Translations under genes and position numbers: made by a program
From: a virus
Taxonomy: Duplodnaviria > Heunggongvirae > Uroviricota > Caudoviricetes
Strand: one strand, 5' to 3'
DNA length: 64,000 nucleotides
Virus record (IMG/VR): IMGVR_UViG_2778261533_000001
Location: 1-64,000 of that record
Shown: piece by piece, positions 47,341 through 50,300 of the stretch
Layout: each line of letters starts with the position of its first letter
Position numbering within the stretch: position 1 is the stretch's first letter
The notes under the pieces: model-generated
Databases searched by the model: none
The model's input: only the letters and a program-made list of their open reading frames with translations
What the model was told of the DNA's origin: nothing

Positions 47341-50300
47341 ATACCCAAAACGTCATGAGCTACACCTCGAGTGTCCCCCTTACAAGACACAGAACGTCTG
47401 GCAAAAAGAGGTTCCACTCTGAAGCCACTGTCATGATAAAGCTCTCTGATGTTTGGCGCGCCACTGTTAGTAATGAGAACCTTTGCACCTCGACGATGAG
47501 CATCCGTCAACAGAGACACCAGGCGTTTTTGCTCTTCAAACTTAAAGTCATGACCGGAATAGTTCGTGAATCCCTCTGTATTTGGAAGCGGTTCATACGG
47601 CGGATCGCAAAAGATGACATCTCCTTCTCCGGCAGCTTCAATCACCGCTGCAAAATCACCGCATACAAACTCAGACCGCCCTTCCGCACCGAGGAAGGCT
47701 TCCATCTCCTGTAATGGGAAATACGGAGTTTTATACTTCCCATAACCGACATTGAACTCACCGGCCTGGTTGTAACGCGTCAATCCGTTAAAACAATGTC
47801 GGTTCAGGAACAAAAACGCCGCTGCGCGATGTAAATCATCATAGACTTGTTTGTTAAACGCATTCCGTACTGCCAGGTATCCTTCCTGTGTGTTGTAGTC
47901 CTGGAAGAAACGATGTGCCAGAGTGATAAGTGAATGCGCCTCGCGTTGCAGAGTCTTGTAAAAGTTAATCAGGTCAGCATTCACATCATTTAGCAGATTT
48001 TCCTGGTATCCGGCATTCATGAAGACAGCTCCGCCACCAACGAAAGGTTCAATCAGGCGCTTCCCTTCTGGCAAATAGCGAAAGATTTGTTCCAGAACAC
48101 CAAATTTTCCACCAGCCCATTTGAATATGGACCGTTCGAATTCTGCCGCTGGTTTAACTTTTCGCTCTTTTGTTTCACTTCCTTCTTTCTGCCGACATAC
48201 GGCCTTAGTAATCCGATCGCCAATCCAGCGCATTACTGGTATTGCCATACTATTGCCGATCGCTTTGTAACGCGGTCCGTCAGCTGCAAGCATCGCGGCC
48301 TCTTCTTCGCTTAAATCAGGATAGTTATTGCGAAGGTATGCCAGTTCATCTGAAGAAACTTTTTTACGCTTTTCCGTAGGGATCAACGTATGCCCATCAG
48401 GAAAACCTTGCAGCCTTTCACATTCGACAGGGGTAAGACGGCGTATTCTACCGTCGCCGAGCAATACAATTGGTGCTTCATGGTTACATGTTAAAGTTGG
48501 TGCCGAATTATCGGTTTTTATCTCAGCCCCTCCTTGCCCATGTGCCATGGCAACTATGTTTGTATCATCGCAAGATCTGATAGCGATGTTTGAAGTATAT
48601 CTGGTAGTTTCCTTCCCCTCGCCTCTGCTCGGCGCAATATCCCGGCGCACGCCTTCGAACTCAAAAAGTACCGTTGCGGGATCGAGGTCTGTTCGAGCAC
48701 TTGCGACAACAAACACGCGTCGGCGTCGTTGTGCCACTCCGAAGTATTGGGCATCAAGGATTCTCCAGGCCACCTTTCGCTGCGGCCCATAAATACAACC
48801 ACACTGCGGCCACTTTGGAGCATGGCAACCGGTTTTGCCATCCCACCGCCAGAACGCGTTACTTTTTCCTGATTCAGGTCGATCACCTGGTTCAAATGGC
48901 GCATCTTCTCCAGCCAATCCGGCAAGGAAACATCCGAAGGCGTTATCTGCCGATGACAAGACTCCTGGGACATTTTCCCAGACAATAACGGCTGGTTTGA
49001 GAAATGACTCAGCCCGTTTGTCGTCAATTGCATTTGCAAGCTCCACATACTTTAAAGTTAGCGCGCCACGCTCATCATCAAGCCCACCACGTAATCCCGC
49101 GATACTGAATGCCTGACAGTTATGGACCACCGCACCATTGAGGATATAGGAATGATCACCTTCGACTTCTATGTTGTATACAGTATCTAGGCCTACCGAT
49201 TTAAACTCTTTGACTGTTCGTAAAAGCATTCCATGAGCCAATCTTGATTTACGTGACAATTTCTGCGGGCAGATTGTTACCTGATAATAATTCCGTTGAT
49301 TTACCACGCGATCCTCGATCACTTTTTTGGGCTCAACTTCAATAAAGCTGACCGAAGAAACATAACCACAAGTCTGTGACAACCCCGCAACGCCCCAAGC
49401 AAGCGCAGGACTAACACTATTAATTCTAAATCCCGCTTTACCACTTGGTGTCCCATCAGTATCAAGATAGCCTTGTAAAAACACATGACGCAATGGATGC
49501 GACATCACCCATGCAGGGATACGCTTAGCATGGCTTAACTCGCCAAAATGTTCATTAAGCCAATTGGCATAACACGTATCATTCAAGGTTACTTTGATGC
49601 TCCCTCGGATTTCGCTTGCCACGGAAAATATGTTTTCTGGTATGCGGCAATGAAACTTTCTCAATTTCTGGCAATTTATGCCAAAAACAACCGCCTTCTT
49701 AGATTTACCTCTCCATCTCCTAATATATCCATCGCCAACATAAGCGCCCGCAAGATACATAGCCTGTTCTTCAGACAAGAACCGAGAACAAATATCTGGA
49801 GATGCAATATTGAAATTAGTTAGAGCGCACCATTGATATCCCGGCATATCACATGCTGCTCGCCATTCCGGTTCAGACAACAACTCTCTCTTAAAATATG
49901 TGCCATTTTTCCGGGTGTTTTGGGCTTTCCACCGAACAGCCAGGAAGGGATGGTCATTGGTTGTTCTTATACCTAAAGGCTGCCCAACGGCATTAAGTAA
50001 CCCCGTATTAGCTATTTTTGAACCAACTCTTTTTACTTGTTGTAACCGCCCGAGATGACTGACTACGTAATCGCCAGGGCAAACATCTTCTATTGGTTTA
50101 TAACCATTTTTACAAAGAACCATATGGCCCGCGGTAAAACATGGTGTCCCTCCCACCAGCACATCAGGGGATTCGATTTCCCCTGCAAGGACTTTTATGG
50201 CAAGTTTTGTCATGTCGCCAAGATTGGCGACATGAGGCCAACGGTGCGCAAGAACGGCAGATGGAAAAGGCTCAGTTTCAGCAAACCAGGCCGGACGCAT

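Follow-up and report, generated by a model that had tools for sequence, protein, structure and literature searches.

The DNA analyzed here is a stretch of 64,000 nucleotides (nt) from a tailed phage of the class Caudoviricetes, a P1-like phage-plasmid (IMG/VR virus record IMGVR_UViG_2778261533_000001, positions 1 to 64,000), which we refer to as the window. Its minus strand carries a dmt gene of the kind found in P1, the classical model phage and workhorse of transduction. The dmt open reading frame (ORF) encodes a C5-cytosine methylase N-terminal half fused to a Dam-type N6-adenine methylase C-terminal half, and the C5 half is interrupted by a 341-amino-acid (aa) insert that very probably is a canonical class-1 intein with a LAGLIDADG homing endonuclease, situated between the Pro and the Cys of methylase motif IV. 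The full 1,013-aa protein matched the Pfam models PF00145 (DNA_methylase; 102.9 bits) and PF02086 (MethyltransfD12; 192 bits) as well as the NCBIfam dam model TIGR00571 (249 bits), and the gene is 99.3% identical to dmt of OP279344.1. A first-pass annotation of the sequence had placed a 341-aa insert at 49119 to 50141 of a 1,013-aa Dmt ORF, and the ORF scan and the junction strings returned exactly these coordinates. The motif positions likewise agreed with its description of motif IV as split into GGTP and CQAFSIAG with the other C5 motifs in normal order, and the initial Cys, the two LAGLIDADG motifs, and the HN that precedes the catalytic Cys were all located in the sequence. The C5 motifs I, IV (split), VI, VIII, and X are followed by the Dam DPPY motif, which is the usual order. 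The G+C content is 0.43 in the insert, 0.53 in the N-extein, and 0.49 in the C-extein. The features of the gene and of the predicted intein are as follows.

47331-50372, minus: dmt precursor ORF, 1,013 aa, GTG start (ORF scan)
50142-50372, minus: N-extein, Dmt residues 1 to 77, carrying motif I and ending in GGTP
50328-50351, minus: C5 motif I, SVCSGIEA, in the N-extein
50142-50153, minus: GGTP, end of the N-extein (N-terminal half of motif IV)
49119-50141, minus: predicted intein, 341 aa, Dmt residues 78 to 418, Cys1 through His340-Asn341
49818-50141, minus: predicted N-terminal splicing (Hint) region; Hint_2 match on intein residues 1 to 49, beta-rich in the structural model
50103-50141, minus: block A
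49938-49973, minus: block B, TxxH = Thr61-Asn-Asp-His64
49266-49784, minus: predicted LAGLIDADG (DOD) homing endonuclease domain; PF14528 at 35.1 bits, PI-PkoII alignment, Foldseek matches to I-DmoI and I-SceI
49728-49754, minus: LAGLIDADG motif 1, LAGAYVGDG, intein residues 130 to 138, acidic Asp137
49524-49526, minus: conserved Lys206 of the endonuclease domain
49452-49478, minus: LAGLIDADG motif 2, LQGYLDTDG, intein residues 222 to 230, acidic Asp229
49119-49247, minus: predicted C-terminal splicing region; TIGR01443 match, Spl DnaX mini-intein alignment
49140-49184, minus: block F
49119-49139, minus: block G, NGAVVHN
49116-49118, minus: Cys+1 codon TGT, first C-extein residue and motif IV catalytic cysteine
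47334-49118, minus: C-extein, Dmt residues 419 to 1013 (Pfam and motif positions)
49095-49118, minus: C-terminal half of motif IV, CQAFSIAG
48963-48977, minus: C5 motif VI, ENVPG
48711-48731, minus: C5 motif VIII, QRRRRVF
48237-48257, minus: C5 motif X, GNSMAIP
approximately 47421-48119, minus: Dam domain
47595-47606, minus: Dam DPPY motif

The junctions of the insert read GGTP/CFTAGH...NGAVVHN/CQAFSIAG, with a slash for the predicted splice points here and below. The elements that characterize a class-1 intein are present, namely, Cys1, the TxxH of block B, blocks F and G ending in His-Asn, and a Cys+1 nucleophile, and the region between them has two LAGLIDADG motifs, each terminating in an acidic residue. 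LAGLIDADG_3 (PF14528) scored 31.1 bits with the whole protein and 35.1 bits with the insert alone (Pfam cut-off, 22.5), Hint_2 barely passed with 28.5 to 28.6 bits (Pfam cut-off, 28.4), and intein_Cterm (TIGR01443) scored 28.9 to 30.8 bits (NCBIfam cut-off, 15.6). The other NCBIfam matches were weak, and all of them fell on the intein parts of models for intein-containing ribonucleotide reductase (RNR), GyrA, RFC, RtcB, DnaB, and DnaE. With the Hint, intein_Cterm, and LAGLIDADG models all above their cut-offs and the predicted fold described below, the earlier reading of the insert as an intein with a homing endonuclease is supported. In a sequence search of the Protein Data Bank (PDB), residues 124 to 259 with the LAGLIDADG motifs aligned to PI-PkoII, and blocks F and G aligned to the Spl DnaX mini-intein. 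The intein has no stop codon or frameshift in any of the seven alleles examined. The combination of hallmarks and model matches is far beyond chance.

The AlphaFold2 model of the intein, built on 13 homologues, reached a mean predicted local distance difference test (pLDDT) score of 93.2 and a predicted template modeling (pTM) score of 0.90. Its best Foldseek matches in the PDB were endonuclease-bearing inteins, TliVMA (E-value of 3e-16), PI-SceI, PhoVMA, PI-PfuI, and PI-PkoII, with a Foldseek probability of 1.00 for TliVMA, PI-SceI, and PI-PfuI; the free LAGLIDADG enzymes I-DmoI, I-SceI, I-AniI, and I-OnuI came next. According to the model, the N- and C-terminal regions form the horseshoe-like beta fold of Hint domains, and two helices (residues 124 to 137 and 218 to 229), each followed by beta hairpins, fit the pseudo-dimeric alpha-beta-beta-alpha-beta-beta-alpha fold of LAGLIDADG enzymes.

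Deleting residues 78 to 418 in silico, as the first-pass annotation had proposed, left a protein of 672 aa that aligned to P7 Dam without a gap and with 96.6% identity over all 672 residues; it was 97.3% and 97.5% identical to two other 672-aa alleles. The PF00145 match became contiguous over profile positions 5 to 119, which comprise motifs I, IV, and VI, and its score increased to 123.8 bits (102.9 with the insert in place). When solved structures were searched with a profile, the match opening at the +1 Cys column began in M.HhaI at residue 81 and in M.HaeIII at residue 71, which are the catalytic cysteines of these enzymes (Cys81 and Cys71). The predicted splicing nucleophile, Cys+1, is the methylase's own catalytic cysteine. 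Because the intein divides the active-site Pro-Cys dipeptide, the precursor would be without a normal C5 active site before splicing; the Dam half of Dmt is uninterrupted by the intein. Exactly 1,023 nt are absent from eight intein-less alleles, in which the methylase motif is intact. The intein-less junction, the predicted target of the endonuclease, is GGGGGAACACCT/TGTCAGGCATTCAGTATC, and a longer stretch of it, from P7 or P1, is GTCGGGGGAACACCT/TGTCAGGCATTCAGTATCGC.

Could the insert be something other than an intein? It might be an accessory domain that ordinarily belongs to Dmt, a bacterial intein-like (BIL) domain, or an artefact of assembly. Such a reading would fit the borderline Hint_2 score and the public records, in which intact intein-bearing copies carry no annotation beyond "Dam family methyltransferase." However, P7 Dam, the reference P1 Dmt, and six other homologues precisely lack the segment, so that it is not an ordinary domain of Dmt; moreover, the same sequence is found in more than 150 independently finished genomes, and the modeled fold matches true inteins. 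The precise absence in homologues, the number of genomes, and the fold effectively refute the ordinary-domain and artefact readings. A BIL domain was considered and rejected as well: the insert has His-Asn/Cys and an embedded LAGLIDADG domain and interrupts the most conserved methylase motif, and the BIL structure 2lwy was only a weak partial match. BIL domains are not known to occupy a catalytic motif with a conserved +1 nucleophile, His-Asn at the end, and a LAGLIDADG domain inside. We consider it next to impossible that the insert is not an intein.

A word-indexed protein search identified related inteins at 47 to 52% and 29 to 32% identity, nearly all in PF00145 proteins. These C5-methylase relatives have the same P/C insertion point, except for P0022 and P0025, and one of the proteins, P0023, contains a mini-intein without an endonuclease at this site. 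A HMMER search run exhaustively against 1.84 billion cluster representatives returned 192 matches with an E-value of 1e-30 or better, and about 125 of the 138 best full-length matches had the context P/C...(H, K, or S)N/CQ. Conservation was scored in 127 same-site sequences, the window intein and 126 relatives of 29 to 99% identity to it (median, 35%). Cys1, Thr61, His64, and Asn341 are kept in all 127; Cys+1 is present in 126, Asp229 and Lys206 in 125 each, and Asp137 in 120, and at none of these positions does the window intein depart from the consensus. This conservation suggests that both the splicing and the endonuclease functions are under selection across the family.

Among phages, the intein of gp35 of Mannheimia phage vB_MhS_587AP2 occupies the same Pro/Cys site, has the same Hint-LAGLIDADG-Hint arrangement, and is 47.7% identical to the window intein. 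In this phage (gp35/gp34, locus positions 1264 to 3100) the C-extein is out of frame directly after HN/CQ and annotated as a separate gene, so that the host gene seems to be in decay around an intein that itself looks intact. Gp120 of Escherichia jumbo phage A4 has a same-site intein of like arrangement (GGFP/C...HN/CQAWS) and 27.5% identity, and many metagenomic C5 methylases contain same-site inteins that are up to 57% identical to that of the window. The methylases of Propionibacterium phage B22 and Lactobacillus phage Nyseid also match and may have the same insertion point. Within this collection the P1-family intein forms its own cluster of at least 99% identity, with nothing nearer than 57%, and differs from the others in its host protein, the bifunctional C5 plus Dam Dmt of the P1 family.

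If the insert did not splice, it would permanently disable the C5 half of Dmt and might be tolerated if only the Dam half mattered to the phage. The essential role of P1 Dmt is indeed GATC methylation for packaging in dam-negative hosts (PMC12707154), the database records of P1 and P7 give the C5 specificity only as "perhaps C5 cytosine," and the frameshifted C-extein of the Mannheimia phage homologue illustrates that such genes can decay. Against this stands the observation that no residue required in the four splicing steps is missing and that each agrees with the consensus of the family; one would hardly expect Cys1, TxxH, His-Asn, and Cys+1 to persist in a dead insertion. In addition, C5 motifs I, VI, VIII, and X are intact, and the reading frame is open across both junctions into Dam. 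A permanently disabling insertion is in our view highly improbable, and in all likelihood autocatalytic class-1 splicing would release a 672-aa Dmt and a 341-aa intein.

How common is the intein in P1-like elements? It is absent from reference P1 (NC_005856; Dmt of 754 aa), in agreement with the first-pass annotation, and from P7 (Dam of 672 aa) and other phage records; the intein-less phage genes inspected included those of SJ46 and MH422554. At 99.4 to 99.9% identity it is present in OP279344, a laboratory "P1 del res del mod" isolate with a Dmt of 1,013 aa, in RCS47 (Dmt of 1,095 aa), and in Ro157c2YLVW. In PLSDB, 133 plasmids from Escherichia coli, Escherichia albertii, Escherichia fergusonii, Salmonella, and Shigella carry it, all at 99% identity or more. 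Among 5,426 complete E. coli genomes the insert was found in 152 and the Dam part of dmt in 480, from which we estimate that about 32% of P1-type dmt genes have the intein. Since it is this common in the P1 family and belongs to a large same-site family, the intein is less unusual than the first-pass annotation implied. When the phage and plasmid collections were searched at the DNA level in distant mode, nothing related turned up below 99% identity or outside P1-like elements, so that no donor lineage could be identified there. PGAP named a frameshifted copy "LAGLIDADG family homing endonuclease," which indicates that the domain is recognizable to the pipeline.

Some of these records contain further observations. 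OP279344, which was used in Argonaute studies, combines the intein with a short P7-type variable region, and reference P1 has neither; hence, stocks that are named P1 differ in dmt. In NZ_CP100503.1 (region 1 to 1150) the intein-containing dmt is cut off at its 3' end by an IS200/IS605 element with tnpA and TnpB. E. coli 06-00048 has a P1-like region with the intein in both the chromosome (CP015229) and a plasmid (CP012497), the plasmid copy being ridden with frameshifts; either a second copy has integrated or the assembly contains a duplication. We considered this strain as a natural experiment with two copies; both carry the intein and look like the same prophage rendered twice, which makes the case uninformative.

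To look for signs of mobility, we compared 15 dmt alleles, 7 with and 8 without the intein, which represent a non-random sample. The intein was found with three lengths of the target-recognition region (Dmt of 1,013, 1,085, and 1,095 aa) and on several N- and C-extein haplotypes that also occur without it. In the seven intein-bearing alleles it has 14 variable sites in 1,023 nt (7 synonymous and 7 non-synonymous within the P1 family) and a nucleotide diversity of 0.005, compared to 0.046 in the N-extein and 0.017 in the proximal C-extein of the same alleles, i.e., it is 3 to 9 times less diverse than its flanks. The base at position -1, the last of the N-extein, is A (CCA, Pro) in all seven intein-bearing alleles and T (CCT, Pro) in all eight intein-less ones. 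In the N-terminal flank, the window differs from 12 other alleles at 11 to 19 positions per 100 bp at 50142 to 50241, at 5 to 8 in the next 100 bp, and at 0 to 4 thereafter. This diverged patch was identical only in plasmid CP104510, and the haplotype is rare: of 494 records that matched, 3 reached 99% identity or more, and all three are intein-bearing (two are among the intein matches, and the third carries a 1,013-aa intein-containing dmt). The diverged flank forms nested tracts, which extend for about 250 to 300 bp in the window and CP104510 and for about 30 bp in CP100503 and are limited to positions -1 and -4 in OP279344 and RCS47.

The diverged patch adjoining the intein is a possible co-conversion tract, and nested tracts that abut the insertion point are suggestive of homing with a variable extent of co-conversion, albeit in a small and non-random sample. 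Sporadic presence, low diversity of the element, and varied backgrounds amount to a population pattern of the homing type, which in 15 non-random alleles could also stem from general recombination. Seven single-nucleotide polymorphisms (SNPs) in the C-extein (+24 to +117) were fully linked to the intein in a set of five alleles; the linkage was lost with 15 alleles, where their haplotype also turned up in the absence of the intein and one allele with the intein had the other haplotype. This left the -1 base and the nested tracts of the N-terminal flank as the features linked to the intein. We lean toward the view that the intein is currently homing, with cleavage of empty sites around GGGGGAACACCT/TGTCAGGCATTCAGTATC followed by gene conversion.

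As the main alternative, the intein may be competent in splicing and have an endonuclease that is inactive or has no target, so that it would descend vertically and spread via general homologous recombination only. Such a history would agree with the strong mosaicism of P1-family genomes, with C-extein haplotypes that are shuffled regardless of the intein, and with intein polymorphisms of which half are non-synonymous; models of the intein life cycle predict that the endonuclease decays after fixation, and the mini-intein of P0023 shows an endonuclease-free state at the same site. However, the intein is not fixed, and empty targets are therefore plentiful. The window intein, like nearly all of its 126 same-site relatives, has retained both acidic LAGLIDADG residues and the Lys, and the seven alleles have kept the intein free of stop codons and frameshifts. 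Furthermore, the intein is less diverse than its flanks, and the nested tracts abut the insertion point in the way that double-strand-break repair predicts. We regard spread without endonuclease activity as unlikely.

Several points weigh against an intein that splices and homes. The margin of Hint_2 above the Pfam cut-off is only 0.1 to 0.2 bits, and Intein_splicing (PF14890) stayed below its threshold on Dmt, with 18 to 22 bits versus 35.8. The equal split of synonymous and non-synonymous sites is weak evidence for constraint at a short time scale. Among the 15 non-random alleles the -1 base is the only flanking polymorphism in strict linkage with the intein, and because P1-like genomes recombine heavily, ordinary homologous recombination could have produced the mosaic flanks and carried the intein along as a passenger. 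The C5 activity of the Dmt domain itself is qualified by the "perhaps" of the P1 and P7 records, and splicing and cleavage are both deduced from the sequence.

We propose the following course of events for the splicing and homing intein. The 1,013-aa precursor would be translated from the C1-repressed uhr-hrdC-dmt operon, with the C5 active site physically split and the Dam domain whole. Cys1 would begin the reaction with an N-S acyl shift, Cys+1, the catalytic cysteine of the methylase, would attack the thioester, and Asn341 would cyclize with the help of His340. The exteins would thereby be ligated to a 672-aa Dmt with an intact motif IV, and the free 341-aa intein would be let go. When two P1-family genomes occupy the same cell, the LAGLIDADG enzyme, free or still embedded in the precursor, would cut the intein-less dmt, and the cut allele, repaired off the intein-bearing copy, would acquire the intein together with more or less of the extein beside it. 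Homing of this kind would explain why about one in three P1-type dmt genes now has the intein.

As the +1 nucleophile coincides with the catalytic cysteine of the methylase, splicing could be a switch rather than the act of a neutral parasite. Conditional splicing has been reported for some RadA, DnaB, and MoaA inteins. One may speculate that Dmt splicing responds to redox state, temperature, or DNA damage and gates C5 methylation during lytic growth of P1, with Dam activity being constitutive, and that the endonuclease could also serve as a weapon between co-resident P1-family phage-plasmids; we hold this idea to be rather doubtful.

How does the P1-family intein relate to known systems? PI-SceI (from yeast VMA1) and the archaeal inteins are the mechanistic paradigm of splicing plus homing, and PI-SceI, TliVMA, PI-PfuI, and PI-PkoII share with the window intein the bipartite Hint fold with an inserted LAGLIDADG domain (E-values of 3e-16 to 1e-9). 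They are, however, only 11 to 16% identical to it and reside in unrelated exteins (vacuolar-type ATPase, RNR, and polymerase). At 341 aa the window intein is also shorter than these (454 to 537 aa) and apparently does without the extra DNA-recognition region of PI-SceI. Its intein-less counterparts include P1 and P7 Dmt/Dam, which are the same gene as the exteins and lie in the same uhr-hrdC-dmt operon; P1 Dmt has a longer target-recognition region than the window Dmt.

Inteins at the catalytic motifs of phage DNA methylases are already a large recognized kind. Those in DNA methylases of actinobacteriophages have been described as DNMT-1/2 by Kelley et al. 2016 (PMC5050341) and as the family Dorothy_75 by Gosselin et al. 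2023 (PMC9957025), and C-5 and N-6/N-4 methylases are both listed as intein hosts (bioRxiv 10.1101/2025.01.02.630785). The actinobacteriophage inteins likewise bear LAGLIDADG domains and sit in orphan phage methylases; they differ in their actinobacterial hosts, and these three sources (PMC5050341, PMC9957025, and 10.1101/2025.01.02.630785) make no mention of P1 or enterobacterial phage-plasmids. The intein of gp60 of the cluster F Mycobacterium phage Pacc40 is 27% identical to the window intein over its full length, but it interrupts an N4/N6 methylase at another site (MHV/C...KN/CPLQFD), a relationship that points to related inteins moving between methylase classes. The RefSeq copies of these mycobacteriophage methylase genes are mislabeled "anaerobic ribonucleoside reductase large subunit" or "helicase," names that were probably transferred off an intein match. 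We found no description of an intein in the dmt of P1, P1-like phages, or Punavirus in the full-text open literature, InBase and subscription journals having been outside the search, and the papers citing OP279344 concern Argonautes. As far as we searched, the element is thus unannotated in the P1 family and unreported there.

A second source of variation in dmt is the target-recognition region between motifs VIII and X (approximately 48260 to 48700 in the window), which is strongly length-polymorphic across P1-like alleles. Minus the intein, Dmt lengths are 672, 744, 754, 807, and 862 aa, and the sequence blocks are unrelated. This polymorphism suggests that different C5 specificities may be swapped among phage-plasmids independently of the intein. 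The surroundings of the gene resemble those in P1, with three minus-strand tRNA genes 3' of dmt for Met (CAT; 44788 to 44863), Thr (TGT; 46505 to 46580), and Asn (GTT; 46583 to 46658); the tRNA with the CAT anticodon is labeled tRNA-Ile in the P1 and P7 records and tRNA-Met in OP279344 and RCS47. A terminator-like hairpin lies past the dmt stop codon (47131 to 47150, minus strand), and in a scan of 47000 to 52000 for promoters and terminators nothing inside the intein exceeded the shuffled expectation. Elsewhere in the window, on the plus strand, is a 2,255-aa ORF (5595 to 12362), which, judging by the P1 map, might be DarB.

The P1-family dmt intein does not reveal a new kind of element. E. 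coli K-12 itself is not known to have inteins. An intein with a homing endonuclease, to all appearances intact, is present in 152 of 5,426 finished E. coli genomes (about 3%) and in at least one laboratory stock of "P1" (OP279344). For the annotation of P1-like genomes this means a correction, in that the 1,013-aa protein is predicted to be a precursor and mature Dmt to comprise 672 aa. The differences in dmt between P1 stocks could affect methylation-sensitive experiments. The endonuclease is a candidate for a new rare-cutting LAGLIDADG enzyme with a predicted natural target. Finally, the dmt intein offers a genetically tractable, natural E. coli system in which intein homing and co-conversion could be measured.

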